This document shows positions 5,019 through 42,936 of a stretch of 64,000 nt of DNA, piece by piece. Each line of letters begins with the position of its first letter. The stretch's first letter is position 1. A model generated the notes under the pieces. It was not told where the DNA came from and made no database searches. It was given only the letters and a program-made list of their open reading frames with translations. A program made the position numbers and the translations under genes. Origin of the DNA: Ignavibacteriae bacterium HGW-Ignavibacteriae-3 (GTDB lineage Bacteria > Bacteroidota > Ignavibacteria > Ignavibacteriales > Melioribacteraceae); the NCBI GenBank assembly GCA_002839795.1, contig PGYS01000002.1, positions 11,274 through 75,273 of the forward strand, given 5' to 3'.

Positions 5019-5029
5019 TATGTTCTCCT

Positions 5030-17770: not shown

Positions 17771-17836
17771 AGAATTAATCCCTAATTCAATTAAAGACGG
17801 TACGTTTTTTTTGCATCATTAAGCAAAGCCCGACAG

Positions 17837-21456: not shown

Positions 21457-22211
21457 ATATAAAATCCCGGAATAAATTTATTAGCCTTCAATTCTTCAAG
21501 GAACGGAAGCGTGTTTTCGAAAAGCGCTTTTTCATTCACGCCGAATACTTGCGCCGCCTCTTTAAGTATTTTAATCAGCGGTGTATTTTCAATTTCAACT
21601 TTTTCTATAAGCCATGAGAAATAAACCGATAAATTCATAAACCTAACTTTTCCGCTTTCTTTTTCTCTAAATAATAATACGTAGTACTCTCCGCGATCAT
21701 TTTCCGTAATTCCTTTTGGATTTTTTAAATGAACGGGGTAATTCAACTGCAAGATTTTGTATTCAGGGTTAACCGCAATGACCTCGCTCAGCCATCCTCC
21801 ATCGGTTTTTGATTCAGGATATGCAATATCCGGCATCATATATATTTCCACCTCTGTCCATTCGAAATTCAGAAGATCCTCTAAAAAAATATATTTTTCT
21901 TTTATTTCAAGGCCGGTCTCTTCCACAAAGCGGTAAAATTCGCTTGGCATTTTCCAAATTGAGGTTGATTGACACTTATAATTCGATAAGAAAGCATCAA
22001 CCACGCCGTACCACTCTTCCTGCGAAAGCAAATCACATGTTAATGGAAACGCCGACTGAAGAGTGTCGTCTATAACGCCATGAATCAGTCTGCGGTAATG
22101 ATGGACACGGTTCTCTGTCAACCCGTCTATCTTCGGCGGATCTCCCGTTCTGCAATAATCTGCGAGCCTGCTCTGTTGTGTGTGTGTGTAGTTATGCAAG
22201 TGAGTGTTCAT
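21453..22211 (-). CDS. DUF2063-family RiPP maturase partner (HvfC/BufC/MbnC-role protein)
   Basis: YRRLIHGVIDDTLQSAFPLT...F...SIWKMPSEFYRFVEE matches my recollection of the DUF2063 N-terminal domain. It always pairs with DUF692. Start moved to the ATG at 22211 (20-nt overlap with the MNIO gene). Confidence 0.75.
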   Translation of the reverse strand: MNTHLHNYTHTQQSRLADYCRTGDPPKIDGLTENRVHHYRRLIHGVIDDTLQSAFPLTCDLLSQEEWYGVVDAFLSNYKCQSTSIWKMPSEFYRFVEETGLEIKEKYIFLEDLLNFEWTEVEIYMMPDIAYPESKTDGGWLSEVIAVNPEYKILQLNYPVHLKNPKGITENDRGEYYVLLFREKESGKVRFMNLSVYFSWLIEKVEIENTPLIKILKEAAQVFGVNEKALFENTLPFLEELKANKFIPGFYI

Positions 22212-23034
22212 AGTCCCACGCCTTTGTACAGATATTTTCAAGTCTGTTTAATTCATATTGAAGTTCATTTAATTCGGGAATGTTGAAATCCCTTTCAAGA
22301 AGAACAGGAACTGTTTTGGGAAGTTTATGAGCGGTAAATTCAAATAGTTCATAAACCGGATCGATAATTGGTTCACCGTGAGTATCTATTATTAAATCCG
22401 GAGCAACCTGCTCGTGACCCGCCATATGAATATATTCAACTTTGTCCAAAGGCAGTTTTTCAATGAATTCTTTTGAATCATAATTATGATTGAAAGCATT
22501 AACATAGATATTGTTTACATCGAGCAACAAATTGCAATCGGCCTCTTTAACTATAGAACTTATAAATTCAACTTCGCTCATTTCCGCCGCAACCGGCGTA
22601 TAATAAGAAACAATTTCGATGGCAATCTTTCTTTCCAGAAAATCCTGAACTGATTTAATACGTTGAGATATATGCTTCACCGCATCCCACCGGAACGGGA
22701 TTGGAAGAAGATCATACAGATGAGCATTATCACATTTAGAATAGCTCAGGTGTTCGGAATAAATCTGAACATTATGTTCGTTGAGGAAATATTTAACCTT
22801 CTTCAGAAAATCCCAGTCAAGTTCATCCGGAGTTCCGATTGAAAGAGAGAGTCCGTGTGTATAAATGGGATACTGCGCGGCAATTTTATTAAAAACTTTT
22901 TTCCAGTAACCGCCGATCTCCATCCAATTCTCCGGCGCGACCTCAAGAAAGGCCGGGGTTAAATCTTTTCCTTCCAGAAATTCTTCAGCAAAATCTTTTC
23001 TGAATCCGATCCCGACATGTTTATTTCTTTCCAT
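22192..23034 (-). CDS. DUF692 / MNIO (multinuclear non-haem iron oxidase; MbnB/HvfB/BufB family)
   Basis: Collinear DUF692 motifs: VGIGFRKDF, LEVAPENW, YPIYTHGLSLSIG, SEHLSY, LYDLLPIPF, LLLDVNNIYVNAFNHNYD, YIHMAGH, IIDTHGEPI and LLERDFNIP. Confidence 0.9.
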   Translation of the reverse strand: MERNKHVGIGFRKDFAEEFLEGKDLTPAFLEVAPENWMEIGGYWKKVFNKIAAQYPIYTHGLSLSIGTPDELDWDFLKKVKYFLNEHNVQIYSEHLSYSKCDNAHLYDLLPIPFRWDAVKHISQRIKSVQDFLERKIAIEIVSYYTPVAAEMSEVEFISSIVKEADCNLLLDVNNIYVNAFNHNYDSKEFIEKLPLDKVEYIHMAGHEQVAPDLIIDTHGEPIIDPVYELFEFTAHKLPKTVPVLLERDFNIPELNELQYELNRLENICTKAWDYEHSLA

Positions 23035-23100
23035 TTCAATTCCTCTTAAGCAAAATCCCGCCTTAGGATTAATCCGCCGGCGGGATTAATTTTGATATTA

Positions 23101-23565
23101 TTATTTCTTCTCTGCCGGTTTGGATTCTTTTTTCTCTTTCATTTCCTTCATCTCTTTCTTATCCATAGATTTGGCGTCTTTCTTTTTTTCGCCGCATTTT
23201 CCTTCTCCGCACTTACCGTCTTTTGCTTTGGAATCCATCGGCTTGGTAGCTTTTGCGTCGTTCATTTTTTTATCGCCGCATTTACCTTCCCCGCACTTTC
23301 CATCTTTAGCTTTTGAATCTTTCGCCTTGGGGTCATCGGCTTTCGGGGATTTGCTATCGCTCTTATTTCCGCATTTCATTTCAAGCGTTCGCTCCGGGGA
23401 TGTATTAAGTAAGGATGCCCTCAGCTCTGCGCCCGAGCCCAAATTGTTAAAATCAAAAAGATTTGCAGCATTTAAAGTGCTTGGGGCGCCGGCGCCGAAA
23501 ATCGCTCCGGCGATAATTGAGCCTGTTACAAGTATGCGTTTTGTGTTTTTATAGTGGTTTTGCAT
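23101..23565 (-). CDS. Secreted Lys-rich precursor peptide with five KCG motifs (HvfA-like RiPP metallophore precursor candidate)
   Basis: Sec-type signal peptide (...GAGAPSTLNA/ANLF). Every Cys sits in K-C-G: MKCGN plus two copies of SKAKDGKCGEGKCG[D/E]KK. It lies immediately upstream of the DUF692/DUF2063 pair on the same strand. Confidence 0.75.
   Translation of the reverse strand: MQNHYKNTKRILVTGSIIAGAIFGAGAPSTLNAANLFDFNNLGSGAELRASLLNTSPERTLEMKCGNKSDSKSPKADDPKAKDSKAKDGKCGEGKCGDKKMNDAKATKPMDSKAKDGKCGEGKCGEKKKDAKSMDKKEMKEMKEKKESKPAEKK
23189..23319 (-). repeat. Imperfect 47-bp direct repeat (period 84 bp) encoding the duplicated DGKCGEGKCG module
   Basis: 23189-23235 tcgccgcattttccttctccgcacttaccgtcttttgctttggaatc versus 23273-23319 tcgccgcatttaccttccccgcactttccatctttagcttttgaatc. 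Confidence 0.8.
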
Positions 23566-23653
23566 GGTAGAACCTCTTATTAAGTGAAGTATTGATAATT
23601 GATTGACACTTATAAAGACGTGGTGTCCGCGATAACCTTACAAGAGGCTGAAA

Positions 23654-23911
23654 TTAATTTTTATCGGCGATGGAATTGATAAGAATGTGCATTTTTTCCA
23701 TTTCGGAATCGGAAAAAGAGTCCCGGGAGTGTAAATTTATTATTTGAAGAGACAGAAATTTCTGCTGTTTGTTAAAAAGCCTGCAGAATTTACAAATTAG
23801 CAGATGAATGAAAAGTTTGATTTTCTCTCCTAAAGGAAGGTTCTTTTCCTCTTTTCGAACAGAAATGAAAGATGCCTCTTCACAGGTGATTAAAATTTTA
23901 GATGATTTCAT
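23654..23911 (-). CDS. Small zinc-finger (HxxxCxxC) anti-sigma factor
   Basis: 85-aa product MKSSKILITCEE...IHLLICKFCRLF carries an H-x3-C-x2-C motif. Its ATG (23911-23909) overlaps the sigma TGA (23910-23908) as ATGA. The track ORF start at 23977 lies inside the sigma gene and is unlikely. Confidence 0.6.
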   Translation of the reverse strand: MKSSKILITCEEASFISVRKEEKNLPLGEKIKLFIHLLICKFCRLFNKQQKFLSLQIINLHSRDSFSDSEMEKMHILINSIADKN

Positions 23912-24477
23912 TTTATAAACCATTTTTCTTCTATACAGCTCCTCAACTGCAGTTTGGAGCGATGAATTATTACCCAATAGTTAGACGAAGTTATCTTTAA
24001 TTCCTTACAGATCTCATGCGAATCTTTTTCATCAAGATATTTCATTGAAAATACGATTCTCATAATCTCGGACAGGCGTTCCATACATTTATTAAGAATC
24101 TCCATAAATTCTTCTGACTCAAGTGTTGAATTATAGTCCACGCCCCAATCCTTTGGGCCCCTGCTTTTAATCCAGTGACTCTCTTCATCAAAAAATCCGC
24201 CTTCATCATTCAAGGTATCAATCTGATCCAATATTGAAGCGGTTTTTTTTCTGTAATGGTCGATTATTTTGTTTTTGAGAATCATATACAGCCAGTTCTT
24301 TTCAGAAATTTCCCCCTTGAACGTTTCAAGATTTTTGAGCGCGGCCAGAAAAGTCTCCTGAACCAGATCTTTTGCGGAATCTTTATCATTAACTCTGATT
24401 ACGGCAAAGCGGAAAAGCGGATCCGCATAAGTTTTAACCCAAAGCTTGGGGTTGAGAATTTTTTTTTCAGTACTCAA
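23908..24477 (-). CDS. ECF-type RNA polymerase sigma-70 family factor
   Basis: Region 2 DLVQETFLAALKNLETFKG...NWLYMILKNKIIDHYRKK and region 4 HEICKELKITSSNYWVIIHRSKLQLRSCIEE. Confidence 0.9.
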   Translation of the reverse strand: MSTEKKILNPKLWVKTYADPLFRFAVIRVNDKDSAKDLVQETFLAALKNLETFKGEISEKNWLYMILKNKIIDHYRKKTASILDQIDTLNDEGGFFDEESHWIKSRGPKDWGVDYNSTLESEEFMEILNKCMERLSEIMRIVFSMKYLDEKDSHEICKELKITSSNYWVIIHRSKLQLRSCIEEKWFIK

Positions 24478-24482: not shown

Positions 24483-25244
24483 TTATTTATCCTTAAATGC
24501 CTTAATATACCTTTTCGTGAACTCGCTCAAGACAAGATTACCGCTTATTTCAGCACGCTCTTCAAGAAGTTTATCCCAATTTTCAGTTCCGGCCCAGAAT
24601 ATTTTTTTCATTTGGGCGATCGCTTCCGGATTGCAGGCCGTCAGCTTCTTCACAAGAGCTGAAACCGCTTCATCAAGATCGTGATTATTGGCAAAAACTT
24701 TTGTGAATAAACCATTTTGTTTAGCCCAGAAAGCGTCATGCCATTCCGCATCTATCGACATTGTGATAAAAGCAGTATTCCCGATCTTTCTTTCAACTGC
24801 GGGTCCGACAACAAATGGACCGATTCCCAACATTAGTTCGCTAAGTCTTACAGAGGCGACGCTAGAGGCAAGCGTATAATCAGCGGCGGCGATAATTCCC
24901 ACTCCTCCTCCGACTGCCTTTCCCTGAACTCGCGCGACAATAAATTTAGGACATTTGCGCATTGCATTTATCAACCGGGCAAAACCCATAAAAAATTCTT
25001 TTCCGGTTTTAAAATCCTTTATGCGAAGCAGTTCATCAAATGACGCGCCCGCGCAGAATGTTTTTTCACCTTCGCTTCTTATTACAATTACATGCGCGCG
25101 CTTATCGGTCGCAAAATCATTTATTGCTTCCGTGATTTTTTTGATTGTTGGAGATGGCAGCGAGTTGCTTTTGGGGTGAGAAAATGAAATCGTAGCAATT
25201 CCATTTATCATGCTTGTAGTAACGGTTCCGCTTTTTTCCATATG
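24483..25244 (-). CDS. Enoyl-CoA hydratase/isomerase (crotonase) family protein
   Basis: Crotonase motifs FCAGASFDEL and RVQGKAVGGGVGIIAAADY. Start moved to the ATG at 25244, preceded by AAGGAG with 6-nt spacing. The stop lies 5 nt upstream of the ECF sigma start. Confidence 0.85.
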   Translation of the reverse strand, partial: HMEKSGTVTTSMINGIATISFSHPKSNSLPSPTIKKITEAINDFATDKRAHVIVIRSEGEKTFCAGASFDELLRIKDFKTGKEFFMGFARLINAMRKCPKFIVARVQGKAVGGGVGIIAAADYTLASSVASVRLSELMLGIGPFVVGPAVERKIGNTAFITMSIDAEWHDAFWAKQNGLFTKVFANNHDLDEAVSALVKKLTACNPEAIAQMKKIFWAGTENWDKLLEERAEISGNLVLSEFTKRYIKAFKDK

Positions 25245-25596
25245 AATCTCCTTTTTGTTCATCATTTTCTCAGAGACGCCAAGCATCGACGACAAATAAT
25301 AAAACACACTTAAAAAACAAATTCTCTAAAAAAATTACTAAACAGATTTGGAAAACCAAAGAGAAAAAGAACTATTTATCATTCCGCTAAGTGGATTTCT
25401 GAGCGATCTATGCCATAAAAAAGGAGGGGGATTATTTTAAGCTATAACGCAAGGCGTTATCGGGCCCGCGATCACAATTTTCGTTTATTCCGTAAATTCC
25501 ACTCCGATGACATTGCCTGAAAAAATTATAATTAACATGTTCATTGAGATCCGCGGAGAGTCCGCAGGTGATTAATATTATTTTCCGGGTGAAACA

Positions 25597-26585
25597 TTAT
25601 ACTTTAAATACTTCAAGCAGTCGGTTCTTGAATTGTTCTTCATAAATTTTTCCATAATTGACAGTCTCTATGGCTCGGGGAAGAATTTTAACAAACTTTG
25701 TTTTTTCATTCTCCCAATTTTCCAATATGGATTCCGCAATTGTTGATCCGGTATGGAACTGGTGATTAACCGGATATTTGAAAATCAGATCTTCGTCGGA
25801 CAGTTTTAGCTCGTCTATCTTTACATATTCCGAATTCAAATTTTTCTCAACTTGGGAGCGGTTATAATTGCCGGCAGAACCTCTTCGCTGATTCCCTCAG
25901 CAAAATGCTGCTCGAATTTTACCGAGTGTGGATTTATTTTTTGCTTCGGTCTAAAAATAAATTTCGGTTTTCATTTTTGGCAGTAAAAATAGACAGATCA
26001 ATATTTTTTTCTAAGCTCCGGATCCCGGGTCGCGATTCCAACCGGACATGTATTTAAGTGGCACTGCCTTGCCATGACGCAGCCTACAGATACAAGCGCC
26101 GATGTACCGAAATCGAATTCTTCGGCACCAAGCATAGCCGCAACAACAACATCTCTTCCGCTTTTCAGTCCGCCGTCCACGCGCAAAGTAACCATATTCC
26201 TTAAACTGTTTTCGGTTAAGGTCCTGTGAACTTCAAAGAGACCGAGCTCCCACGGAAGACCGGTGTGCTTCAGAGAACCGAGCGGACTTGCTCCCGTTCC
26301 GCCGTCGTTTCCGCTTATTAATATAATTTCCGCGCCTGCTTTTACGACTCCAGAAGCAATAATTCCTATTCCAGGCTGGGAAACAAGCTTAACACAGATA
26401 TTCGCTCTCGGGTTTACCTGTTTAAGATCATAGATCAGCTGGGCAAGATCTTCTGTACTATATATACCATGGTGAGAGGGAGGCGAAATCAACGGAACGC
26501 CGGGTGTAGTATGCCCGCTGTTTGCGATTGACAATGTAACTTTTTCCCTCGGAAGCTGGCCGCCTTCACCCCGTCTGGCCCCCAC
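25597..26585 (-). pseudogene. gltB: Decayed glutamate synthase large-subunit (gltB-like) relic: FMN-domain fragment plus extreme C-terminal fragment
   Basis: 25998-26585 encodes only GEGGQLP...[24 protein letters not shown]...[10 protein letters not shown]...GLPWELGL...[21 protein letters not shown] then a stop. 25597-25839 encodes the C-terminal tail (HTGSTIAESILENWENEKTKFVKILP). The amidotransferase domain, central domain, first half of the FMN barrel and most of the GXGXG domain are absent. Confidence 0.6.
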
Positions 26586-26614
26586 ACCCGGTCCGAAATT
26601 AGATTTTGTAAGAA

Positions 26615-29600
26615 CTACCCATTTTCTCCGGTAAGGCGTGCAATCTGCAAAAGATAAAATCTTAAAAGGTCCTGCTGCTTTGGCGAAAGCGCCTGTTCTT
26701 CAATCTTTATTATTCTTTCCACTTCCTTTATTGCCCTAACTATATTTATGGGTACTTCAACCATTCCCTCGGAAACCGAGGATAGATATTCAAATGCGGC
26801 AGCAAGAAATTGACGCATATTATCATCGCCGGACATTCGGAAAAAACTGCTTATCTCAGTGGAGAATTTTAATTTTTTAGGCGCAAATGGTAATTCTTTT
26901 GTGCTGCTATTCGCCGATAACGAATGCAGAGCAACCGCCAATTCGGAGAAGCTCGCAACTCTCTGAAATACGGGCTGTTCAAGAAGATCCCAGCTTTTTT
27001 CTCTCCACATTTTAATATGAACCGGCACGACAAGAAGATTTTTCATAGCATCAATCCATTGCGGATCGACTTTACCTTTTATTGATGAAAGAACTGCTTC
27101 CGGATCCGTATTGAACAAATTTGACTGAAGAAGAACGGCTAGATCGGGGCGAAGGGTCGGCAATAGATCAGGAATAAATTTTCCGTTCTCAAAAAAATCG
27201 GTTACATCCAGCCCGTGTCTTCTCATTAATTCACGCTGGAAAAGATAAAGGTACGTGTTCATTGAATCGATATCTTCACGCAATGCCACAAAAGCAGAAT
27301 TGGCGGCAGGAAATGCTTTTTCCAATTTATTCAGATAGATCAGATCATAATCATGATAAATTCTTAAGGAATGTAAAATTTCATAAACGGGCAGGTTGGG
27401 CAGAATCCTGTCTTCTATTAATGCAACGGCTTCCCCTTCCGAAAAATCTTTTTGGGAAAAAATATTCAGGGCTCTGAATAAACCCGTTGTTAACTGATTA
27501 ATTCCGAGCACAGCCGTCTGAGATTGATTATGAGCAATTGCCCTTAGCATGCTTCCGTATCGGGAAAAAGGAATTGTCTCCGAAATTTTTTCGAGAATTT
27601 TCTGTCCAGCGCTTTCGGAGACTCCCTGTCCGGGACGTATGGTCGGCCTATCCCTCAGCGGCGGTGTGGTTCTTGCAATGAAATATGAAATTATATGAAT
27701 TCCAAAAACGTCTTCTTCCCGTCCGTACAGTATTTGTCTGAAATTCTCAGTTACGATAGAAAGAAATTCATCAAACAGAATATCTTTTCTTCCGATTGTA
27801 AGTCTTTCCAGTTCCTGAAGGCCGCGCGACCGGAATTGCAGACGTGTTTCAACCAGAGGTTCCCCGGCACGGATAATTTCCGTCTCGTAAAATTTTTGTG
27901 ATTCTTTCGCATGAAAAAGAATCTGAGCCAATTCTCCGGCGGGAATATTCCGGAAGTTTTCGGAAAGACCGCTTTGGAAAGTACGCAGATCCCCTCCGGC
28001 AAAAATTCCCATCAATGGAGTCGTGGCATACCCGGTGCTTTTCTTTGTAGATTCCTTTAAGTGAGTTGAAAATCTTCTTTGTGAGTCGGTGGAATTTGAA
28101 AACGCCGCAGATCCCGCGACGGCAGAATAATAACCTCCCTGACGCTGCATCGGTTCCCCGCTTCCCATTTTCATTCTTACTGTTCCGCTCAATCCTTTTT
28201 CAGCGAGCCAGGAAGTCAGATCATATTTTGCTTTTTTGTAAAGCATCATTCCGGCAGCCTGCCCAACTTGCTGACTAAGGTCCGATCCGGCGACGAATAC
28301 TTCACAAATAATTTCAAGGAATCGTTCACCTGTGTCTTGGTTTAGCCTTCTGCTCTGCAGCGAATGCTCCCAGATTTTATTAAGATAATTATTAAGTCCT
28401 TCAACAGTATCCAGCTCTTCAAATAGCGGAATCAGCCATAGCGGCGGATTTTCTTTGTTTAAATTTTTACGCTGACCCTGTTCCCTTCTCGACCTGATTT
28501 TCCTGTCGAGGGCGATCAAAGCCTCAGGTTTTGTTGACATGCTTACCTGCAGCGCCAGGATCATGCCGGGATTATCATACTTGCCTGCAATTTCATTAAT
28601 CTCATTTATATTATGAACGGTGGTATCCATCGCGAACTGATCCTGCGAGGTAATCATTTTCTGATGAATCCGGGGTGTTATTATAAATCTTTTCATCAAG
28701 TCTTTATAAAGACACGCCTCAAGCAGCAGTTCTTTGTTGCCGATATTCTTTTCAATCTCAGGCAGAAGAGAGTTTAATGTTTTCCTGATTTTCTTGTTCA
28801 GCGAGAAATAGTATTCGAGAGCTTTTCTTCTCTGCTGGCGAAGCTCGATCATTTTTCGTTCAAGACGGTCATTGTGATGCCACAATGAAGTAAGCGGATC
28901 CCGGGCAACATGCAGTTTCATTCCGAGCTGTCTGAAACGGCCGGGTTTAAGGTTGAATGGAAGAACGCCCCTGTATCTTTTTTCAAGCTGATGGGTAAGT
29001 TCCGTAATCTCTTTGAGCAATTTAGAGAAGCGTAAATTGGTTTCGGGAAATTTTTCTATTTCCCCAAGCAGAAAAGAATCAATTTTAATTGAACTTTCTT
29101 GTTTGAGAATAAGATTCAGCAATTTTGACTGCCGGGAAATATTTTCTATTACAACCGACGCAACAAGACTGTGCCCCTGACCCGAAGGTCGGTTGCTTCC
29201 GTCCCAATCTCCCCAGAACGAGTGAAAGACCTGATATGATTTATCAGAATAAAGTCCGGTATAATTTTCAGCCGCTATGAATGATTTTAAGTCTGTCAAA
29301 AGTTCCGCAGGTTCATCACCCGATACAATAGCAACATTCAATCCTAAAAATTCTTTAACCAATTCAGCGGAAGATTTTTTAAGAATAGACTCGGTAATGT
29401 TTTTATTCCTGATTGCGAGGTCGATCATCTCTTCGAAGAGCAGTTCCAGTTTAAGCGAGTACATCTGCGTAGGATGGACGGTACGGTCATATAATCTTTC
29501 TTTAAAAACTTTCTTTCTTCTTTCAAGATTATCTTTGTAAAATTCATTTTGCAGCATTCCGATAAGATTTTTTCCCTTATCAGCCAGGGATTTTTCCATC

Positions 29601-32233
29601 AGGTCAAAGGCGATGGTAAGCCTGTCGCGGAATCTCTGTTTGAATAGAGAAAGTCTTTCCGGTAAAAAATCAGTTTCAAAGCGCGCCTCATAGTTCCGGT
29701 TCTTCAACTGGCCGCTGTATGAATTCAATTCTATCCGGAATCTTTCTTTCGAAAAATTCAGTATGCTTTTTTCAATCTCATCCCATTTATCAAAATATTC
29801 AGTCCTTGAAATTAATTTTTTTTCAGAACCTTGATTAAGAATAAATTTTTTCCTGCTGTAATTCGCAGATTCTTCTGCAATCATTCTATTAAGGTCAATC
29901 AGAACGCGTCTGGTTTTTTTCAACAGAATGGATGCATTGTCGGCGCCGCCGAGCGTCAGGCGAAAAGTTTTTCTGCCCCGTTCAAATCCCTTTTCTGTGC
30001 GCGCAAAAGTTGAAAGCGGAAGAAGCCCTATTCCCTGTCTGGCCAATCCCGATGCAAGCCAGTCGAGAGATAATCCATCGGGAAGTCTGTCAATTATCAT
30101 TTGCGGGTACATGCTCCCCTTGGGGGACGTAATGCTTATTTCGAACCGGTTTCTTTCTTTAGGCAGAATATTCACCGCTTCCCGGATCGAATTCATTCTT
30201 TCGTAAAATATTTTATTACGCAGACGCCAGTATGAATTAACAGTCTCTGCCCTGTTTCTGTAAAACAGATAAGTTAAAAACAGAGCGGCAGTGTTCGGTT
30301 CGATTGATGCATTAATCTCCTTAAATTTTTTGTGTATCCCGGGATGCCTTATTTCCACCACGGATAATCTGGCCCCGGCCAGAGAGTCGGTTTTAGAAAC
30401 CGAATGCACCGTGATCAGATAATCTGTCTCTTCGCTCCCAAGGTAGCCGGAGGCCTGCAGTTCATCGGCCAACTGACGGATCGTTTTGATTTTCCGCAGC
30501 CTGTCCGCCGGTTCTACGTTCTGATATGATAAATCGTCGATGACAAATATTTTTCTTTCAAGAAGCCACTTAGTTAGCCGTGTAACCGATTCCGGGGCGA
30601 ATTCCTGACCGGTGGCATTATGTGGATTATTAAGAACAACAGCGCCATAAGTTTTCCAATTCGGGTCCCTCAGAATTTTATCCTTAACCATCTCAATCAT
30701 CGCATCAACATCAAGCTCATAATCATCCGTAAGCGGAACAACGCAAACCGAAGGAAAACAATGTTCGTAAGTCCAGCTTAAATCCGGAATGATGACTTCT
30801 TTAATGCCACAATGAAATCCCAGCAATCCCAATCCAGTTCTTGAAGAACCGCTAACCGCTACCGTACTCGATTTTCTATACTCGGGATGATGTTTCAGAA
30901 ACGAGAAAAGGAAACTATTTGCCAATTCATCATTCCACTCAACTGAATTGATATTCTTAACATACTTATCCAACAGTTCTTTTGAATCGATATCTGAATA
31001 AAGATCATAAGGAAAAAGAGAGGTATATTTTTCAATTTTTCCGGTTAGGTAATTTTCATCATAAATTTTTCTTTCAAGAAGACTTTCTATCTTGCCGGCA
31101 CTTTTATCTACAATTCCGGAAAGTTTTTTCTCCGCATCTTTAACATAAGCGGATGCAAAGGCAACACTGTCAGAGTGAAGATTGGATTCTTCATAAGCCG
31201 GTTCAATTTCTATTGCGGTTTTATTTTGATCATGATCTTCCCTTAGAAGATTTTCCTTCAATATATATGAGAGGAATTCGGCTTCTGAAGCGGAGGGAGT
31301 ACCCTTCAGCTGGAACTGAACAGTTTCCATCACTCTTATATAATCAGAGTTCCCGGCTATGAATACAGTTGAGAGATTATTTAACACCGGGGAAAATATG
31401 CCGGGGGTTAAAAACCGCACTACCCGGTTGATCATTTTAGCTTCGCGGGCAAGTGAAAGATGATTGGGGGCATTATTTATCTCAACGAAAAAGAGGGGAA
31501 ATTCAAGTCCCAGCAGGCGCAGTTTTCTTCTGGTTTCTTCTTTTGTTTCTTTGCCCAATAGGAGAAAGACCGGAATAGTGTCTGATTGATCGAAATTTCT
31601 CTGCAGATCGCCGATCAGTTCATCTTCAATATTTGAAGAGGCAGTTATCTTTAAATTCTGAAATGTCTTCAGGTGTTCGGGAAGCTTGATGCAGTAGGTA
31701 TAAACAGAGGCAGTATTTGAAATCAGGAAATTTGACAGAGAATGAAATAATAGCCGTATAGCTTCGAATACACCACCTGACGAGAGGATTATTTCTCTTT
31801 TCCCTGTGATCTCTCCCAGATCATATGAAAGGGGCTCCTGCTGATTTTTGATAAGCCATTCATTAAAATAATTGACAAGAAAGCCCGGATTTTTTTTGTT
31901 GAATCCGCCGCGCGGCATGTAAGGGGCGCTCTTTTTTATCAGGTCCAGAAAAAGCTGAAGCTTCACAGATTCCTTTTCATCCCAGCCGAGCTCAGTTCTG
32001 ATCAACTCCGGATTATTCACGGAGAGATTTTGATCATCTATCGCCAATCCGAGAACTATTCTTAAAAAAGCTGACGACAGGACATCATCCTGCACAGGAT
32101 TTCCGATATGAAAGTTAACGCGCTCTTCGGCCGCGACCGATGAAGATGCGGTTGCCTCGCTCACCTCCGATACCCTTGCTGCCTTTATCGGCCGGAGTTT
32201 AAAATATTCCAGTGGATCTGTGTGTTGTTTCAT
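26615..32233 (-). CDS. Giant fusion protein: degenerate plus intact class I/II aminotransferase modules fused to a divergent PEP-carboxylase-like domain
   Basis: Uninterrupted 1872-codon ORF. Aminotransferase motifs are NNPHNATG (aa 535-542), DDLSY, and SVSK with Lys614. PEPC-like motifs are collinear with E. coli Ppc: TVHPTQ (H920), FWGDWDGSN (1006-1014), PLFEE (1269-1273), AGSDLS (1315-1320), [13 protein letters not shown] (1355-1367), LRAI (1563-1566) and C-terminal RLTGENG. Confidence 0.8.
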
Positions 32234-32257
32234 TTATTATTTATTCGATATTCTCAT

Positions 32258-33238
32258 TTATTTATTTTTCTTTTCATCGTTCTTTTGTGAAGAACTGTTA
32301 ACTGCATTCTGGAAATATTTTTGGAACATGCTGATTAAGTCCGAGCCCTGTGAAATATCGTTGGGTGAAAGAGAAATTATGGTCCTGGCATTTTTTAATG
32401 ATTGACTTGCTTCGGCTAATCTTGCCGCCTGTGGAGTAAGCATTAACAATTCTGGATTTTTCTTAAGCATTTCCAGCTCCTGATTGTCGAATTCAAGCTG
32501 CATTTTTTTTCTTTTCAATTCATCTTCCATTCTTTGCTGGGCAAGTTGGGATTCTTTTTCCATCTGATTTTTTTTCAGTTCATATTTCTTCATTTCGAGT
32601 TCATTTTCCATCACCGCAATTTCTTCATCAGCTCTAAGTTTTGTTTTAGCCGCAGAAATTCGCGCCTTCTGATTCAACAATTCAGTCTGCTCGATAATTC
32701 TTGCAGATTCCTGCCGGCGCATTGAGTCTGATATTTCGGGATCAAGCGCTTCCAAAGACTGAACTGTGAGAGAAATAACTTCAAGACCGAATTTATCGGC
32801 CCGGGCAGTTACCTTTTCGTGCAGATAGTTAGAGATATTCTCAGAAGATAATTCCTCAATTCCATATTTTTCGGCATGTTCTTTTACGAGATCATGAATT
32901 ACTATTTCGAGTTCCTTTACGGCTTTTGCCGGCGCGGTGCTATTCCAGCCGCCGACACGTATCAGCGTTGAAATATTTTTCAAGGATGCGGCTACGGTAG
33001 CAGAAAGTTTGATTTTAATATCGAGATTGCCTTTTGCCGCCGCTTCAACACTTAATTGAGTCGATTGTGTTGTGTTAGACAATGCAAGACAAAAATGACG
33101 GGGATAAAACCGACTCTTGCGGAATTCAATTTTTCCCTTCGATTCGAAAAGAATTATCTGATCCGGTTTCCGCAAACGGTATTCATAAATAAAAATTATT
33201 ACCGCCGCGAATAATAAAATACCTGTGATAATCCACAT
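32258..33238 (-). CDS. SPFH/band-7 (flotillin-like) membrane protein
   Basis: N-terminal TM WIITGILLFAAVIIFIY, an SPFH-like core, then a long E/K/Q coiled coil. The stop is 24 nt upstream of the giant ORF start. Confidence 0.65.
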   Translation of the reverse strand: MWIITGILLFAAVIIFIYEYRLRKPDQIILFESKGKIEFRKSRFYPRHFCLALSNTTQSTQLSVEAAAKGNLDIKIKLSATVAASLKNISTLIRVGGWNSTAPAKAVKELEIVIHDLVKEHAEKYGIEELSSENISNYLHEKVTARADKFGLEVISLTVQSLEALDPEISDSMRRQESARIIEQTELLNQKARISAAKTKLRADEEIAVMENELEMKKYELKKNQMEKESQLAQQRMEDELKRKKMQLEFDNQELEMLKKNPELLMLTPQAARLAEASQSLKNARTIISLSPNDISQGSDLISMFQKYFQNAVNSSSQKNDEKKNK

Positions 33239-33450
33239 AGTTCTTTCTCCTAATGATTTTAATCTTTTATCAGATGATTTTTGAGATTTGATGAAGATAG
33301 TTTAAAATCTCACTTAAAAACGTAAATTCAAGATAGAGTGACGGCCAATTTCTGTTTGCCCGATCCGGCCGACAATATACGAAATCCGGCCTGATGGTTT
33401 TTGCTTTTAGGCATTATCCGGTTCTGAAAAACTTTTCTTAGATTATAAAT

Positions 33451-35052
33451 TCACGGCCGATCAACCGGTGTAAACATTTTTTCACTTTCAATTTTAAAAA
33501 GCTTGTAGTTGATGCTGTCGCACAACGCCTGCCAGCTTGCTTCGATAATATTTTCCGAAACTCCAACCGTAGACCAGGTTTCGATTCCATCGCCGGATTG
33601 AATCAGAACCCGGACCTTCGCAGCGGTACCGTTTTTCTCATCCAGTACCCGAACCTTGTAATCGAGCAGTTTTATTGAGGCGATATCCGGATAAAATCTG
33701 AGAAGTGCCTTGCGCAATGCGTTATCAAGAGCGTTTACCGGTCCGTCTCCGTTGGATGCCGTATGCTCAATTTCACCGTCAACTTCGATCTTTAAGACAG
33801 CTTCGACGCTTGAATGATTCTGATTATCAAAAGCTACATGGATTTTTGAATCAAGCAATTTAAAAAACGGCGAAAACTCGTTTGTCTCGGAACGAAGCAT
33901 CAACTCGAATGAAGCTTCGGCCCCGTCGAACTGATAACCTTCATACTCAAGAGACTTAATATGCCTAACCAGTTTTTTGCTTAGATCGTTCTCTTCGGAA
34001 AGGTCAATTCCGAATTCTTTTGCTTTATACTTTATGTTGCTCTGGCCGGAAAGATCAGATACCAGAACTCTCTGTTTATTGCCTACAGATTTAGGACTAA
34101 TGTGTTCATACATTTTGCTATCCTTCATTACCGCGCTTACATGAATTCCCCCTTTGTGGGCGAACGCAGATTTGCCTACAAACGCGGCGCGGGTGTTCGG
34201 GGCAAGATTCATCAATTCACTTACATAGTTTGACAACATTGTAAGTTCATCCAAATTTAAATTCTGTTTGGTCTTCAGATTCATCTTTAACATCAGGTTT
34301 GGAATTATGCTGATCAGGTTTGCGTTACCGCATCTTTCTCCGACTCCATTAACCGTGCCCTGTACATGAACAGCACCGGCCTCAAGTGCAATTAGGGAAT
34401 TTGCCACGGCAAGTTCGCCATCATTATGAGTATGAATTCCGATTGGTTTATTTATTGCCCCCTCAACCTCTTTAACAGCATCATAAATTTCATTGGGGAG
34501 CGAACCGCCGTTTGTATCGCACAGCGTTATTACGTCCGCGCCGGCTTCCTGCGCGGCTCTAATCATTTTCAACGCGAACTGTTTATCATTTTTAAATCCG
34601 TCGAAAAAATGCTCAGCGTCAAATACAACTTTTCTGCCATGTTCTTTTAAATATAGAACAGATTTGTAGATTAGCTCTTCATTTTCGGATTCGGATAATC
34701 CAAGTCCCTTTTCGGCATGAAACCTCCAGGTTTTTCCAAATATTGAAACGATTGGAGTTTCCGCCTTCAGAAGCGCATTTAAATTCGAATCATCCAAAAT
34801 TTTATCCGGGAATCTTGCTGTCGATCCAAACGCGCAGATAAGGGCCTTTTTTAATTTTAGTTTTGCGACTTTTTGAAAGAACTCCTCGTCGCGCGGATTA
34901 CTGCCCGGCCAGCCGCCTTCTATTATATCAATTCCAAATTCATCAAGTTTTTGGGCAATGCTAAGTTTGTCATTGATGGAAAGATTAACTCCTTCCCCCT
35001 GGGTTCCGTCGCGGAGTGTTGTATCGAACAATTCTATGTATTCGGATTTCAT
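33451..35052 (-). CDS. cimA: (R)-citramalate synthase (LeuA-family paralogue)
   Basis: DTTLRDGTQGEG, HTHNDGELAVANS, a C-terminal LeuA-dimer-type regulatory domain and a length of about 530 aa. A second bona fide leuA sits in the same operon. The CimA versus LeuA assignment is by resemblance only. Confidence 0.7.
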   Translation of the reverse strand: MKSEYIELFDTTLRDGTQGEGVNLSINDKLSIAQKLDEFGIDIIEGGWPGSNPRDEEFFQKVAKLKLKKALICAFGSTARFPDKILDDSNLNALLKAETPIVSIFGKTWRFHAEKGLGLSESENEELIYKSVLYLKEHGRKVVFDAEHFFDGFKNDKQFALKMIRAAQEAGADVITLCDTNGGSLPNEIYDAVKEVEGAINKPIGIHTHNDGELAVANSLIALEAGAVHVQGTVNGVGERCGNANLISIIPNLMLKMNLKTKQNLNLDELTMLSNYVSELMNLAPNTRAAFVGKSAFAHKGGIHVSAVMKDSKMYEHISPKSVGNKQRVLVSDLSGQSNIKYKAKEFGIDLSEENDLSKKLVRHIKSLEYEGYQFDGAEASFELMLRSETNEFSPFFKLLDSKIHVAFDNQNHSSVEAVLKIEVDGEIEHTASNGDGPVNALDNALRKALLRFYPDIASIKLLDYKVRVLDEKNGTAAKVRVLIQSGDGIETWSTVGVSENIIEASWQALCDSINYKLFKIESEKMFTPVDRP

Positions 35053-35078
35053 TTTGCTTCTCTAATAAATAATAAATT

Positions 35079-35636
35079 TCATATCATCCCGGAAGTGCGG
35101 GCGAATTCAAATAAACCGCCTGCCGCGACAATTTCAAAAACATCTCCAAGCGGATTAAGCTGATAAATTTTTCCGTCGGTGTGATTAGTTAACCGGTTCT
35201 CTTCGACATTGAGTTCAACCTGATCTCCCGTTTTAATTTTGTCGTTAAGCTTAAGCTGACTTTCGTACGGAATCACAAATCCGCCGTCAACAGAGTTCCG
35301 GTAAAATATTCTGGCATAAGATTGGGCGATAACAACTTTCACTCCGGCAACCTGAAGCGAAAGGGGCGCGTGTTCACGCGATGATCCACAGCCGAAATTC
35401 GTACCGCCAATAACTATGCTGTACTCTGATTTATGATCATCCCCTTTTATAAACGGTATTCCTCCGTCCGGCAATCCCGCTTTTTCTACAGGGACACTTG
35501 AAAGTGCGTAGTGGCCGTATTTTTTTAATTCTTCGGGGTCGTTTGTGCTGTAGACAAGATGTTCCGCAGGAATTATTTGATCGGTATCGATATTATCTCC
35601 TAAAACATATGCCTTGCCGATTATTTTCTTTTCCAT
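35079..35636 (-). CDS. leuD: 3-isopropylmalate dehydratase small subunit
   Basis: GTNFGCGSSREHAP aconitase swivel-domain motif and a short (archaeal-type) length. Confidence 0.85.
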   Translation of the reverse strand: MEKKIIGKAYVLGDNIDTDQIIPAEHLVYSTNDPEELKKYGHYALSSVPVEKAGLPDGGIPFIKGDDHKSEYSIVIGGTNFGCGSSREHAPLSLQVAGVKVVIAQSYARIFYRNSVDGGFVIPYESQLKLNDKIKTGDQVELNVEENRLTNHTDGKIYQLNPLGDVFEIVAAGGLFEFARTSGMI

Positions 35637-35660
35637 AATAATTTCCTATACCAAACTGTA

Positions 35661-36956
35661 TTATAAGAGCTCTCTTGGATCTGTTATCACACCTCTTATT
35701 GCGGAGGCGGCGACAGTCAGCGGTGATGCCAAATATACCTGTGACGATTTGCTTCCCATTCTTCCGGGGAAATTTCTATTTGTTGTCGATATTACAACAT
35801 CACCTTCCACACTTCTTCCAATTGTATCAGAAGGACCGCCGAGACAGGCGGCGCAAGAGGATTCCGCAAGAATGCAGCCGGCGTTTTCAAAAATATTTTT
35901 AAGAGAAAAGCCCTTAATGGTTTCTTCTTCCAGCTGTTTTGCTACAGCAGTGCTTGCGGGAACAACAAATGTGGTTACTTTCACTTCGTTGCCTAACAGA
36001 ATTTCTGCGGCGTACCTGAAATCGGTTATCTTTCCTCCCGTACAAGAGCCTATATAGCATTTTGTCAATTTGGTGCCTTCGACATTGCGTACCGTGTCCC
36101 TGTTATCGGGGCTGTGTGGTTTTGCAACCAGCGGTTCAATTTTTGAAACATCGTATGAATATTTTGAATGATAGACTGCATCATCGTCACTCTTAAACTC
36201 ATCATATTCATCAACTCCGATGTCGCCAAGATAATTTTTCGTGGTTTCATCAACCGCAATTATTCCATTCATTCCGCCTGCTTCTATGGCCATATTTGTT
36301 AAAGTCATCCTTTCGTACATTGAGAGAGAATTTACCGCCTCGCCATCGAATTCCATTGCTCTATAGGTGGCTCCGTCTGTTCCGATATCTCCAAGTATCT
36401 GAAGGATCAAATCTTTGGCGGTTAAATACCCCGGCATTTTTCCATAAAATGTAAACTTCATCGACTCCGGAATTTTCTCCCAGATTTTTCCCGTTCCAAG
36501 AATAAATGCGGCGTCGGTATTTCCAACTCCGGTCGCGAACATTCCGAAAGCTCCCGATGTACACGTGTGAGAGTCCGTCCCGAACAATACAGTTCCGGGA
36601 ACATTATAGCCTTCTTCCGCCAGAGCAATGTGACATACACCTTTATAGCGTTCTGTTCCGACATCATAATAGTTCGGTAAATCATATTCACTTGCAAACT
36701 GGCGAAGTATATCAACATTTCTGTTCGCGTGAGAATTTTTTGTGAATATATAATGATCCGGAAAAATCACCAGCTTTTCTTTATCCCAGATTTTTGCCTT
36801 CTCGCCGAATTCTTTTTTCCAGATCGCAATCGTAGGAGGTCCGCAAACATCGTGCGTCATGAGAACATCAACATCGAGCCAGACATTCTCGCCGGGTATA
36901 ACTGAAGTACGTTTTGAGGATTTTGCTAATATTTTTTCAGTGATGGTCATTCGCAT
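35661..36956 (-). CDS. leuC: 3-isopropylmalate dehydratase large subunit
   Basis: Fe-S ligand contexts GTDSHTCT, GSCTGG and SCAACLGG, plus NRNFPGRMG. Confidence 0.9.
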   Translation of the reverse strand: MRMTITEKILAKSSKRTSVIPGENVWLDVDVLMTHDVCGPPTIAIWKKEFGEKAKIWDKEKLVIFPDHYIFTKNSHANRNVDILRQFASEYDLPNYYDVGTERYKGVCHIALAEEGYNVPGTVLFGTDSHTCTSGAFGMFATGVGNTDAAFILGTGKIWEKIPESMKFTFYGKMPGYLTAKDLILQILGDIGTDGATYRAMEFDGEAVNSLSMYERMTLTNMAIEAGGMNGIIAVDETTKNYLGDIGVDEYDEFKSDDDAVYHSKYSYDVSKIEPLVAKPHSPDNRDTVRNVEGTKLTKCYIGSCTGGKITDFRYAAEILLGNEVKVTTFVVPASTAVAKQLEEETIKGFSLKNIFENAGCILAESSCAACLGGPSDTIGRSVEGDVVISTTNRNFPGRMGSKSSQVYLASPLTVAASAIRGVITDPRELL

Positions 36957-36972
36957 AAAAATCTCTTTGTGT

Positions 36973-38547
36973 TTATTTGAGAGCGATTCCGTTCTCGTTT
37001 ATTTCAACTTTTGTGTTTGCGAAAAGAAGAAACTGATTTATTGCCTGCAGATATGCCTTGGCGCTTGCTTCAATAATATCCGTTGAAGTTCCTCTTCCCG
37101 TAAATGAATTTTCTTCGCTCCTGATTCTGATTATTGATTCTCCAAGAGCCTGTCTTCCGGAAGTAACCGAGCGAACACTGTAAGATTCAACAGTAGGCTT
37201 TATGTCAAGCGCTCTTTCGATTGCGTTGAATACAGCGTCCACCGGTCCGTCGCCGGTTGATGATTCCTGAATAACTTCCTCTCCCGTTTTAATTCTAACG
37301 GTAGCTGTCGGGATAGTATTAGTTCCTGCATTAACGTGCATATATTCAAGTTCGTAATATTCTTCCGTTTTAAAAATTTCATCTCCCATTAAAACTCTGA
37401 GATCGTCATCAAACACTTCTTTCTTTTTATCCGCCAGGTCAACAAACGCGTTATAAACTTTTTGCAATTCCTCTTCGGTCAGATGATATCCTAATTCCTT
37501 CAGTCTTACTTTTAAGCCGTGTCTACCGGAATGTCTGCCTAAAACTATTTTTGTTTTATTTACGCCCACCGATTCCGGGGTCATTATTTCATACGTCTGT
37601 TTATTCTTGAGCATCCCATCCTGATGAATTCCCGATTCATGAGCAAAAGCATTATCCCCGACAATGGCTTTATTCGGCTGGACAACAATTCCCGTAAAGC
37701 CGGAGACCATTTTACTGGTATTATAGATTTCTGAAATATTAATTCCGGTGAAATAGTTTACAATATCTTTTCGAACTCTCAACGCCATAGCGATCTCTTC
37801 GAGAGACGCATTACCGGCCCGCTCCCCGATTCCGTTTATTGTACATTCAACCTGTCTCGCTCCGTTTTGAATAGCCGCAAGAGAGTTTGCAACGGCAAGA
37901 CCGAGATCATTATGGCAATGAACACTTATAACGGCTTTATCTATATTTTTTACTCTTTTTTTCAATTCAAAAATTTTAGCTCCGAATTCTTGCGGAAAAT
38001 TGTATCCGGTAGTATCGGGTATATTAACCGTTGTAGCACCCGCATCGATAGCCGCTTCAATAATGTCGGCCAGATAACCGATGTCCGTTCTTCCGGCATC
38101 TTCGGCTGAAAATTCAACGTCTTGTACAAATGTTTTTGCAAAAGCAACGGCATCGTATGACATTTTCAAAACGGTTTTTCTTTTCTCCTCAAGTGTAGCA
38201 CCGTATTTGCTGTCGCCGAATTTTCCAAGAACATGAATATCGGACGTGCTTGAAAAAGTATGTATGCGGGGATTTTTGGCATTTCTCAGGGCATCGTAAG
38301 CAGATTTAATATCAACCTCTTTAGCCCGTGCAAGCCCTGCGACGATCACTTCCAGTTCACCGGCAATTCTTTTAACCGCTTCGAACTGTGCCGGTGAGGA
38401 GACGGGAAAGCCGGCTTCAATTACATCAACATTCAGCGCAGCCAGCTGACGCGCAATTTCAAGTTTTTCAAATACATTCAATGAGGCACCGGGAGATTGT
38501 TCCCCGTCTCTTAATGTTGTGTCGAAGATTATTATTTTTTCATCCAT
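36973..38547 (-). CDS. leuA: 2-isopropylmalate synthase
   Basis: DTTLRDGEQSPG, HCHNDLGLAVANS, HESGIHQDG and a C-terminal regulatory domain. Confidence 0.9.
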   Translation of the reverse strand: MDEKIIIFDTTLRDGEQSPGASLNVFEKLEIARQLAALNVDVIEAGFPVSSPAQFEAVKRIAGELEVIVAGLARAKEVDIKSAYDALRNAKNPRIHTFSSTSDIHVLGKFGDSKYGATLEEKRKTVLKMSYDAVAFAKTFVQDVEFSAEDAGRTDIGYLADIIEAAIDAGATTVNIPDTTGYNFPQEFGAKIFELKKRVKNIDKAVISVHCHNDLGLAVANSLAAIQNGARQVECTINGIGERAGNASLEEIAMALRVRKDIVNYFTGINISEIYNTSKMVSGFTGIVVQPNKAIVGDNAFAHESGIHQDGMLKNKQTYEIMTPESVGVNKTKIVLGRHSGRHGLKVRLKELGYHLTEEELQKVYNAFVDLADKKKEVFDDDLRVLMGDEIFKTEEYYELEYMHVNAGTNTIPTATVRIKTGEEVIQESSTGDGPVDAVFNAIERALDIKPTVESYSVRSVTSGRQALGESIIRIRSEENSFTGRGTSTDIIEASAKAYLQAINQFLLFANTKVEINENGIALK

Positions 38548-38574
38548 TCCAAACCTTTTATTTATAAATATTTT

Positions 38575-40685: not shown

Positions 40686-40703
40686 TTTATTATTCCTTAT
40701 TTA

Positions 40704-41213: not shown

Positions 41214-41215
41214 AT

Positions 41216-42934: not shown

Positions 42935-42936
42935 TT

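Follow-up and report, generated by a model that had tools for sequence, protein, structure and literature searches.

A predicted, highly diverged phosphoenolpyruvate carboxylase-fold domain fused behind aminotransferase modules, and its SPFH gene neighbour, in Ignavibacteria and relatives

INTRODUCTION

Phosphoenolpyruvate carboxylase (PEPC; EC 4.1.1.31) converts phosphoenolpyruvate (PEP) and bicarbonate into oxaloacetate and inorganic phosphate. To our knowledge it is regarded as a monofunctional family that is never fused to other domains, and in which the signature motifs are universally conserved. The enzyme is a tetramer with well-known allosteric sites, and its fold is an eight-stranded barrel set among about 40 helices. 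Mutagenesis of the Escherichia coli enzyme (Ppc) has placed His138 and Arg587 in the bicarbonate and carboxyphosphate steps of the reaction, and in the literature of Kai, Matsumura and Izui Glu506 and Asp543 are the metal ligands, while arginine side chains bind PEP. Here we analyse a gene located in a 64,000-nucleotide (nt) stretch of the genome of Ignavibacteriae bacterium HGW-Ignavibacteriae-3 (GenBank assembly GCA_002839795.1, contig PGYS01000002.1, positions 11,274 to 75,273), which we call the window. The gene (26615..32233, complementary strand) encodes a protein of 1872 amino acids (aa) in which a C-terminal domain resembling PEPC lies behind two alpha/beta modules, one of them a class I/II aminotransferase. 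Nucleotide positions are those of the window unless another context is named, and all the parts of the large gene described below are on the complementary strand (-).

Two further kinds of system provide points of comparison. In the glycine decarboxylase P-protein GcvP a single chain comprises a PLP-free N-terminal half with the type I fold of pyridoxal 5′-phosphate (PLP) enzymes and a C-terminal half that binds PLP. Proteins of the SPFH family are encoded in operons such as those of NfeD with stomatin and of HflK/C with FtsH. The locus described here may be likened to both, in addition to PEPC.

RESULTS

A three-module protein family

The large open reading frame (ORF) is complete, running from an ATG start to the stop codon at 26615-26617, and its C-terminus (RLTGENG) is typical of the family. 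A counterpart that is 100% identical has been deposited as 'hypothetical protein CVV24_00505, Ignavibacteriae bacterium HGW-Ignavibacteriae-3'. The motifs listed for this protein in a first-pass annotation of the window, which was made from the sequence alone, were all recovered at the positions given for them.

A search of 5.8 billion clustered proteins yielded 690 matches, of which the best 120 are described here. All of these are full length (1835-1892 aa) and 54-100% identical. The assemblies in which they occur, from Ignavibacteria, Melioribacter and Stygiobacter, are independent of one another and include isolate genomes and megabase contigs. The full-length architecture is present in the isolates Melioribacter sp. 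OK-6-Me and Stygiobacter electus. An exhaustive HMMER search of 1.84 billion representative proteins with a profile of the C-terminal 1083 residues gave only 238 matches. In those that are full length (approximately 1690-1950 aa) the domain starts at about residue 710-850 and runs to the end of the chain, and the shorter matches are all collinear fragments of the same architecture. No free-standing C-terminal domain, and no other fusion partner, was found among these 238 matches; the idea that free-standing versions exist was rejected, since every shorter match is such a fragment. Candidate division KSB1 and unclassified 'Bacteroidota' metagenome-assembled genomes account for the most distant members, which are 36-37% identical. 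The three-module architecture is fixed and vertically conserved across the family. In the public databases its members are named 'hypothetical protein', 'aminotransferase class I/II-fold PLP-dependent enzyme' or 'aspartate/methionine/tyrosine aminotransferase'.

The fold of the C-terminal domain

The C-terminal domain (aa 790-1872; 26618..29866) was modelled with AlphaFold2 using 33 sequences (model me53de29f76da), giving a mean predicted local distance difference test (pLDDT) score of 74.6 and a predicted template modelling (pTM) score of 0.71. The C-terminal 250 residues, and a loop at domain residues 716-784 (aa 1505-1573), are of low confidence. The model has eight beta-strands embedded in long helices. 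When it was compared with the PDB using Foldseek, the top 22 matches were all PEPCs, with E values from 1.7e-9 to 1.8e-4 and a probability of 1.0. They include the maize (5VYJ, 1.7e-9) and E. coli (1JQN, 4.1e-9) enzymes and those of Arabidopsis and Flaveria, together with the archaeal-type PEPC 3ODM (5e-6 to 1.8e-4). The first match that is not a PEPC is an ABC transporter, at E = 0.05.

The eight strands make up a predicted barrel core (aa 915-1421; 27971..29491). In the numbering of the C-terminal domain they comprise residues 126-129, 215-220, 394-401, 438-442, 477-482, 522-525, 564-567 and 629-631, and each ends in a PEPC-like motif, the last of these being LRTFQS. The motifs at the strands are invariant in an alignment of the family C-terminal domain (61 sequences, extending down to 36% identity), and their PEPC counterparts occur in the same order.

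Sequence comparisons were made with a set of 13 PEPCs, comprising the E. coli enzyme and 12 chromid- or plasmid-encoded PEPCs identified by tblastn in gamma-, beta- and alpha-Proteobacteria and one haloarchaeon. A scan of contigs for further PEPCs gave sequences from Enterobacteriaceae only, at least 91% identical, and these were not used for the profile. The segment for which profile-profile comparison supports the relationship is aa 1203-1367 (28133..28627), which aligns with residues 449-590 of E. coli Ppc. With hhalign, residues 414-578 of the family domain aligned to E. coli 449-590 with a score of 36.8 (P = 0.0055); 40 column-shuffled queries gave 20.2 ± 2.6 and none exceeded 25.8, and reversal of the alignment gave 28.5. 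A PEPC hidden Markov model (HMM) applied without filters matched the core corresponding to the ISMA, PLFET and GYSDS motifs in 51 of the 61 family members at P < 1e-3, 17 of them at P < 1e-5 (the best at 1.6e-7), and always in the same register. Among shuffled or reversed controls just 1 in 366 fell below 1e-3. A Pfam scan of the homologue P0044 aligned its aa 1199-1362 with positions 471-621 of the PEPcase profile (E = 0.0018; 16.8 bits, where the cutoff is 22.4). PEPcase is the best Pfam family for P0044 other than the aminotransferase, and P0044 is the only one of 26 members to pass the HMMER filters in this way. When sub-regions were compared by hhalign, the top match for the N-terminal third placed TVHPT on TAHPT, over five columns only, and the C-terminal part placed LFQRELLRRH on LNVLQAELLHR (E. 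coli 839-850).

On the basis of the modelled fold and the profile comparisons, the C-terminal 1083 residues are very probably a true, very diverged homologue of PEPC. A PEPC-like domain in this position had been proposed in the first-pass annotation, and the proposal is upheld by the Foldseek matches and the targeted profile tests. The collinearity is seen only in sensitive or targeted comparisons.

Conservation and substitution of PEPC active-site residues

Eleven residues, H138, R396, E506, D543, K546, H579, R581, R587, R699, R713 and G883 (E. coli numbering), are invariant in 13 of 13 PEPCs, and the arginine of the GGDRDGN motif is likewise invariant in this set, from Proteobacteria to haloarchaea. 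Inside aa 1203-1367 the equivalent positions in the family could be read from the supported hhalign alignment. Both metal ligands are retained. Glu1272 (28418..28420), in the PLFE motif at aa 1269-1272 (nt 28418-28429), corresponds to Glu506, and Asp1318 (28280..28282), in AGSDLSQQ at aa 1315-1322, corresponds to Asp543; hhalign, BLASTP and HMMER agree on both, and both are present in 61 of 61 sequences. The counterpart of the glycine-rich loop FHGRGGxxGRGG lies at aa 1355-1367 (nt 28133-28171), and here Arg1364 (28142..28144, in QRQGG) is the retained equivalent of Arg587 in the hhalign alignment. The histidine of TAHPTE, His138, is matched by His920 in TVHPTQ (29474..29476), from a short hhalign match and BLASTP, and is invariant in the 61 sequences.

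Other residues that are invariant in PEPC have been replaced. In the same hhalign alignment Lys546 of GYSDSxKD becomes Gln1321, which is itself invariant (61/61), His579 becomes methionine or leucine at position 1356, so that the position stays hydrophobic, and Arg581 becomes Ser1358, with serine in 54 of 61 sequences. The counterpart of GGDRDGN is WGDWDGSN (aa 1007-1014; nt 29192-29215), in which the arginine is substituted by an invariant tryptophan (Trp1010, giving GDWDGS); an invariant arginine is found five residues downstream of the tryptophan. Four additional residues occur in collinear motifs that lie outside any statistically supported alignment: Arg1188 (ITPRIHQ) may correspond to Arg396 (DIRQES), Arg1529 (RDRPTIR) to Arg699 (GSRPAKR), Arg1564 (in LRAI, aa 1563-1566) to Arg713 (LRAIPW) and Gly1872 (in the C-terminal ENG) to Gly883. 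The three arginines would then be the ones that bind phosphate and carboxylate.

Whether kept or changed, the family counterparts are essentially invariant in the 61 sequences. RAI.H is invariant, and QGG, the C-terminal glycine and other flanking positions are conserved in 59-60 of the 61. The hhalign comparison bears out the earlier tally of these residues, in which the glutamate, the aspartate and the TAHPTE histidine were kept and the lysine, the loop histidine and the first loop arginine were replaced; the second loop arginine is kept. Since both metal ligands, the catalytic histidine and arginine and their neighbours are near-invariant across wide divergence, the barrel is likely to be catalytically active. 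Four residues that are invariant in the 13 PEPCs have been changed, and the sequence comparison makes standard PEPC chemistry doubtful. Because their replacements are fixed or nearly so, an altered chemistry is favoured over ordinary carboxylation.

The N-terminal half of the protein

The model of aa 1-800 (AlphaFold2, mfdfb41522113; pLDDT 87.2, pTM 0.85) contains two alpha/beta modules, aa 1-330 and aa 410-790. Module 2 (aa 410-790; 29864..31006) was identified as a class I/II aminotransferase by Pfam, by profile search of the PDB and by Foldseek. The Pfam match to PF00155 (Aminotran_1_2) spans aa 443-745 with E = 2.1e-11 (44 bits, against a cutoff of 19.7), placing the assignment made in the first-pass annotation on a significant footing, and PF00155 was matched in all 26 homologues scanned. 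The profile match in the PDB is to Bna3 (6.9e-10). Foldseek comparison of the aa 1-800 model gave 1-aminocyclopropane-1-carboxylate (ACC) synthase, LysN and aspartate aminotransferase (AspAT) at approximately 1e-13, aligned over about 370 columns, i.e. one module, with target-normalised TM-scores of 0.6-0.69.

The residues of module 2 expected to contact PLP and the substrate carboxylate (N539, D567, Y570, K614, R622 and R758) are invariant in 33 sequences. They would supply the PLP lysine (K614), the aspartate at the pyridine nitrogen (D567), the asparagine and tyrosine at O3′ (N539 and Y570) and the arginines for the phosphate (R622) and the alpha-carboxylate (R758). A profile match of residues 529-572 to residues 165-208 of Thermus AspAT places N539 on N175, D567 on D203 and Y570 on Y206, and the lysine and arginines were assigned by motif (SxSK...GxR and FRLT). 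The NNPHNATG motif is at aa 535-542 (nt 30608-30631). Lys614, of SVSK (codon at 30392..30394), is invariant, lies inside the PF00155 match and is the predicted Schiff-base lysine. Module 2 should be an intact class I aminotransferase, predicted from its sequence to bind PLP and an alpha-amino or alpha-oxo acid. No equivalog could be assigned to it, the best NCBIfam scores being 10-23 bits against cutoffs of 276-675.

Module 1 (aa 1-330; 31244..32233) is defined by the topology of the model. Its seven strands (148-151, 175-180, 194-198, 222-226, 247-251, 271-275 and 290-294) follow the same order as those of module 2 and of the large domain of fold-type-I PLP enzymes. It has none of the NPxNPTG, D..Y and S.SK motifs, and the PLP lysine is absent, with TPGIF in the position of S.SK. 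Module 1 is thus probably a degenerate (pseudo-)aminotransferase half, which is a reasonable reading of the modelled strand order. The earlier suggestion of a degenerate aminotransferase-like segment upstream of module 2 therefore fits the seven-strand order of the model, but draws no support from any sequence search. Module 1 is connected to module 2 by a disordered stretch (aa 333-357, with pLDDT below 50) and a helix of 50 residues (aa 357-406; 31016..31165), both as seen in the model.

An SPFH gene adjacent to the large gene

Immediately upstream of the large gene, on the same strand, is a gene for a protein of 326 aa of the SPFH/Band-7 family (32258-33238; Pfam Band_7, E = 3.8e-8, 34 bits against a cutoff of 23.6). 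A gap of 24 nt separates its end from the start of the large ORF. The gene was overlooked in the first-pass annotation. The protein has a hydrophobic N-terminus, MWIITGILLFAAVIIFIY, corresponding to a transmembrane helix, and a heptad-rich, charged coiled-coil tail that has a weak match to erlin. A homologous SPFH gene encoding 320-330 aa lies immediately upstream of the large gene in 6 of 6 contexts, i.e. the window and five others that were inspected (L002/L003, L004, L005, L098 and L099), with a gap between the two genes of 8-76 nt. In the two most divergent lineages the SPFH protein is 36-40% identical to the copy in the window, a divergence similar to that of the large protein. The SPFH gene co-diverges with the large gene and is its obligate neighbour in the contexts inspected.

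Alternative explanations

An assembly or binning chimera, in which an aminotransferase gene has been joined to an unrelated gene, might be suspected given that the window derives from a metagenome-assembled genome and that the large gene is directly followed by a truncated gltB fragment. It is refuted by the recurrence of the full-length architecture in more than 120 independent assemblies, among them isolate genomes and megabase contigs, and by the collinearity of the shorter homologues, and we give it practically no weight; the fusion recognized in the first-pass annotation is real, with no mis-join. The likeness to PEPC might alternatively be a chance set of short motifs in a long helical protein, the C-terminal domain being unrelated. 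A series of blank searches could be cited in its favour. Neither Pfam (E ≤ 1, including the core segment alone) nor NCBIfam finds PEPcase in the window protein. No PEPC was matched by phmmer or by an hmmsearch with the 33-sequence family profile against the PDB sequences, none by hhalign against the single E. coli Ppc, by global hhalign or by the family HMM run with --max against Ppc, and none was found in the exhaustive search of 1.84 billion representatives with the C-terminal profile. BLASTP against Ppc gave E = 0.30, which is not significant, and its best alignment pairs PLFEE with PLFET and AGSDLSQQ with GYSDSAKD. Set against these are a Foldseek list whose top 22 entries are PEPCs only, of both types, with a gap from 1.8e-4 to 0.05 before anything else appears; targeted profile tests that lie far above their shuffled and reversed controls in an unchanging register; the unbiased Pfam scan of P0044, which ranks PEPcase first after the aminotransferase; and the eight predicted strands, whose motifs match those of PEPC one by one and in the same order. 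We therefore consider a chance likeness to be very improbable. The first-pass annotation had proposed that the claim should fall if domain scans were blank. They are blank, and homology is shown by other means, so that reliance on ordinary scans would wrongly reject a true relationship.

There remains the question of what the domain does. The explanation that we favour over its rivals, at about an even chance in our estimation, is that sequence and model describe an active relative of PEPC that has been neofunctionalized and coupled to a transaminase, with a chemistry that differs from that of standard PEPC. It could instead be a bona fide PEPC, diverged yet still making oxaloacetate from PEP and bicarbonate, with a fused AspAT to which the unstable oxaloacetate is channelled for conversion into aspartate, as the first-pass annotation had suggested. 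The fold match along the whole length, the retention of the metal ligands and of the equivalents of His138 and Arg587, and the plausible persistence of the Arg396, Arg699 and Arg713 motifs and of the C-terminal glycine are all consistent with this, as is the presence in module 2 of every class I residue including the carboxylate-binding Arg758; moreover the gene seems to belong to the lineage-wide core, as would be expected if it encoded an anaplerotic enzyme. We nevertheless judge it unlikely, because Lys546, His579, Arg581 and the arginine of GGDRDGN have given way to fixed or near-fixed residues, the family profile misses PEPC altogether, such is the divergence, and module 2 matches no AspAT equivalog above cutoff. 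Still less probable is that the PEPC-like domain is a non-catalytic pseudoenzyme, acting as an oligomerization, regulatory or ligand-sensing platform (for aspartate, malate or PEP) for the aminotransferase. The tetrameric, allosteric nature of PEPC would offer a precedent, several of the PEPC-invariant residues are lost, and model confidence is low for both the last 250 residues and the loop at aa 1505-1573. However, no positions in the domain are more strictly conserved, among the 61 sequences that extend down to 36% identity, than those of the former active-site motifs, and it is these positions that decayed pseudoenzymes normally lose. The first-pass annotation had offered either a PEPC derivative of altered chemistry or regulation, or a pseudoenzyme; the derivation from PEPC stands, and the pseudoenzyme is disfavoured by the altered motifs being essentially fixed throughout the family.

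A number of observations weigh against the favoured explanation, i.e. the neofunctionalized and active PEPC relative, beginning with the blank Pfam and NCBIfam scans of the window protein. The TM-scores of the Foldseek matches are low (0.24-0.32 when query-normalised, and 0.46 when target-normalised for 3ODM), showing that the global superposition is poor and the homology distant, although the hit list is strikingly specific. Outside aa 1203-1367, residue equivalences are short motif matches only. For module 1 no sequence match was found to any Pfam family (E ≤ 10), to the PDB in a profile search, or to module 2 by hhalign. We take His920 and Arg1364 to be residues of the carboxylation step, and their retention would fit ordinary PEPC chemistry equally well. 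Lastly, no conserved neighbour other than the SPFH gene that might hint at a pathway was found across the six contexts.

Other features of the genomic neighbourhood

In the contexts L002, L004 and L005, from Ignavibacteria and Melioribacter, the SPFH and large genes are preceded by a divergent gene with a PspC domain and a gene of approximately 167 aa (L002 5748-8687, L004 3911-6706 and L005 3850-6779), and beyond these two genes are an extracytoplasmic function (ECF) sigma factor and an RskA_C anti-sigma factor. This neighbourhood is absent from the window, L098 and L099; it is of a membrane-stress type and fits the SPFH theme. In L099 (KSB1) a canonical NfeD-Band_7 pair of the stomatin type (16722-18811) is found about 3 kb downstream of the large gene. 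The partner of the large gene is thus a distinct SPFH paralogue and not the housekeeping one. In L098, which belongs to the 4.7-Mb genome that carries P0156, the divergent genes upstream (4315-6855) encode a VTC-domain protein (polyphosphate-related), a DUF4956 protein and a protein of 353 aa. The VTC-domain gene might indicate a link to phosphate metabolism, as a single occurrence.

A complete branched-chain amino acid operon, ilvD-ilvB-ilvN-ilvC-leuB-leuA-leuC-leuD, is present in the window at 33451-44634 (-), and a second LeuA/citramalate-synthase-like (cimA-like) gene (33451-35052) lies between leuD and the SPFH gene on the same strand, an adjacency specific to this genome. On the other side of the large gene, an ORF of 195 aa (25998-26585, -) starts 30 nt past its stop codon and is an internal fragment of the FMN domain of glutamate synthase (Pfam Glu_synthase, E = 2.1e-84, profile positions 146-338 of 369), with neither N- nor C-terminal remainder. 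It is followed by approximately 690 nt with no sizeable ORF, in which there is a possible further piece at 25597-25839 (-). This gltB fragment looks like a pseudogene remnant, a local rearrangement or a mis-assembly. A link of the large gene to the ilv-leu operon or to the gltB fragment was considered and dropped, as neither neighbour is conserved in relatives. In a scan of 25200-33600 for promoters and terminators the sites were no more numerous than in shuffled sequences.

Further along the same strand is a cluster at 21004-24477 (-), which contains an ECF sigma factor (23908-24477), an ORF of 154 aa (23101-23565) and an enzyme of the MbnB/TglH/ChrH (DUF692) family (22192-23034, E = 1.4e-96). 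After the DUF692 gene come a DUF2063/NGO1945-like gene (21453-22241), a DoxX gene (21004-21456) and an AhpC/thioredoxin-like gene (20486-21004). Pairs of DUF692 and DUF2063 genes are typical of clusters concerned with peptide modification or metals.

DISCUSSION

The neofunctionalized PEPC relative that we favour might work as follows. Module 1 would act as a built-in 'second subunit', forming a pseudo-dimer with module 2 within the aminotransferase. The barrel would form a metal-stabilized enolate from PEP or from a PEP-like enol-phosphate, with the bicarbonate/carboxyphosphate half-reaction handled otherwise than in PEPC. A 2-oxo acid produced or consumed at the barrel could then move between it and the PLP site within one polypeptide, and the membrane-anchored SPFH protein could tether or cage the complex on the cytoplasmic side of the membrane. 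The analysis itself shows the architecture, the homology of the fold, the conservation of the residues and the pairing of the genes. That the protein is catalytically competent, what it acts on, that its two sites are coupled, that a pseudo-dimer forms and that the SPFH protein interacts with it are things that we infer. Taken as a whole, and at rather less than an even chance, this may be the first neofunctionalized member of the PEPC fold, catalysing a reaction other than carboxylation, fused to a PLP pseudo-dimer and organized by an SPFH protein, as a lineage-wide module in Ignavibacteria, KSB1 and relatives.

The components are of known kinds, a PEPC fold and a class I aminotransferase, in an architecture and a gene pairing that are undescribed. 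In the literature that we searched there was no description of a PEPC-like domain in a fusion, or of a PEPC paralogue with another function, and nothing relevant on the PEP-oxaloacetate enzymes of Ignavibacterium and Melioribacter. Neither aa 1-440 nor aa 790-1872 falls under any Pfam or NCBIfam model. The impression of novelty in the first-pass annotation is borne out, in that neither an annotation nor a paper describing the fusion was found.

We note that the large protein is an exception at the level of a family. It combines the fold and a partial catalytic set with the exchange of four 'universal' residues, and it exists only as a fusion. If it is active, then either PEPC chemistry tolerates a very different bicarbonate/phosphate site or the fold supports a new type of reaction. 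Structure prediction recovered a large conserved domain that Pfam, NCBIfam and exhaustive HMMER searching all fail to see, and 'aminotransferase' or 'hypothetical' is the only label on more than 600 database entries. The SPFH pairing would be a rare and testable case of an SPFH scaffold that is dedicated to a metabolic enzyme. As the gene is carried by Melioribacter and Stygiobacter isolates, the question of function can be addressed directly by experiment.

Comparison with known systems

The domain shares with bacterial and plant PEPC (PF00311; 1JQN, 5VYJ) the same overall predicted fold over approximately 1,000 residues and the same eight strands with collinear motifs. The metal-binding glutamate and aspartate, the TAHPTE histidine and the second arginine of the glycine-rich loop are common to both, and the LRAI arginine and the C-terminal glycine may be so too, going by collinear motifs. 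By contrast, the family falls below every curated threshold and is about 200 residues longer, and it has Gln in place of Lys546, Met or Leu in place of His579, Ser in place of Arg581 and GDWDGS in place of GDRDGN. Its domain is never free-standing, and is always placed behind approximately 790 residues of PLP-fold modules; we know of no PEPC in any fusion or with another activity. The archaeal-type PEPC (PF14010; Clostridium perfringens 3ODM) was matched by Foldseek at 5e-6 with a target-normalised TM-score of 0.46, and shares the minimal barrel. It differs in being half the size (approximately 530 aa) and free-standing, and has no match at the level of sequence.

Module 2 has the fold of the class I aminotransferases, such as the yeast kynurenine aminotransferase Bna3 (3B46), Thermus LysN (2EGY), ACC synthase (1B8G) and the AspATs, and shares all of the residues that contact PLP and the substrate carboxylate. 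It is distinguished by NNPHNATG for NPxNPTG, DDLSY for DExY and an insertion of 16 residues before the lysine, by being embedded between two large modules, and by having no NCBIfam equivalog near cutoff. The probable arrangement, in which a degenerate PLP-fold module precedes an active one and pairs with it as an intramolecular pseudo-dimer, may be analogous to that of GcvP, with no sequence relation found between the two. The pairing with the SPFH gene resembles the NfeD-stomatin and HflK/C-FtsH operons, where the gene for a membrane-anchored coiled-coil SPFH protein forms a tight operon with that for the protein it presumably organizes. The difference here is that the partner is a giant cytoplasmic protein of metabolic-enzyme type, rather than NfeD or a protease.

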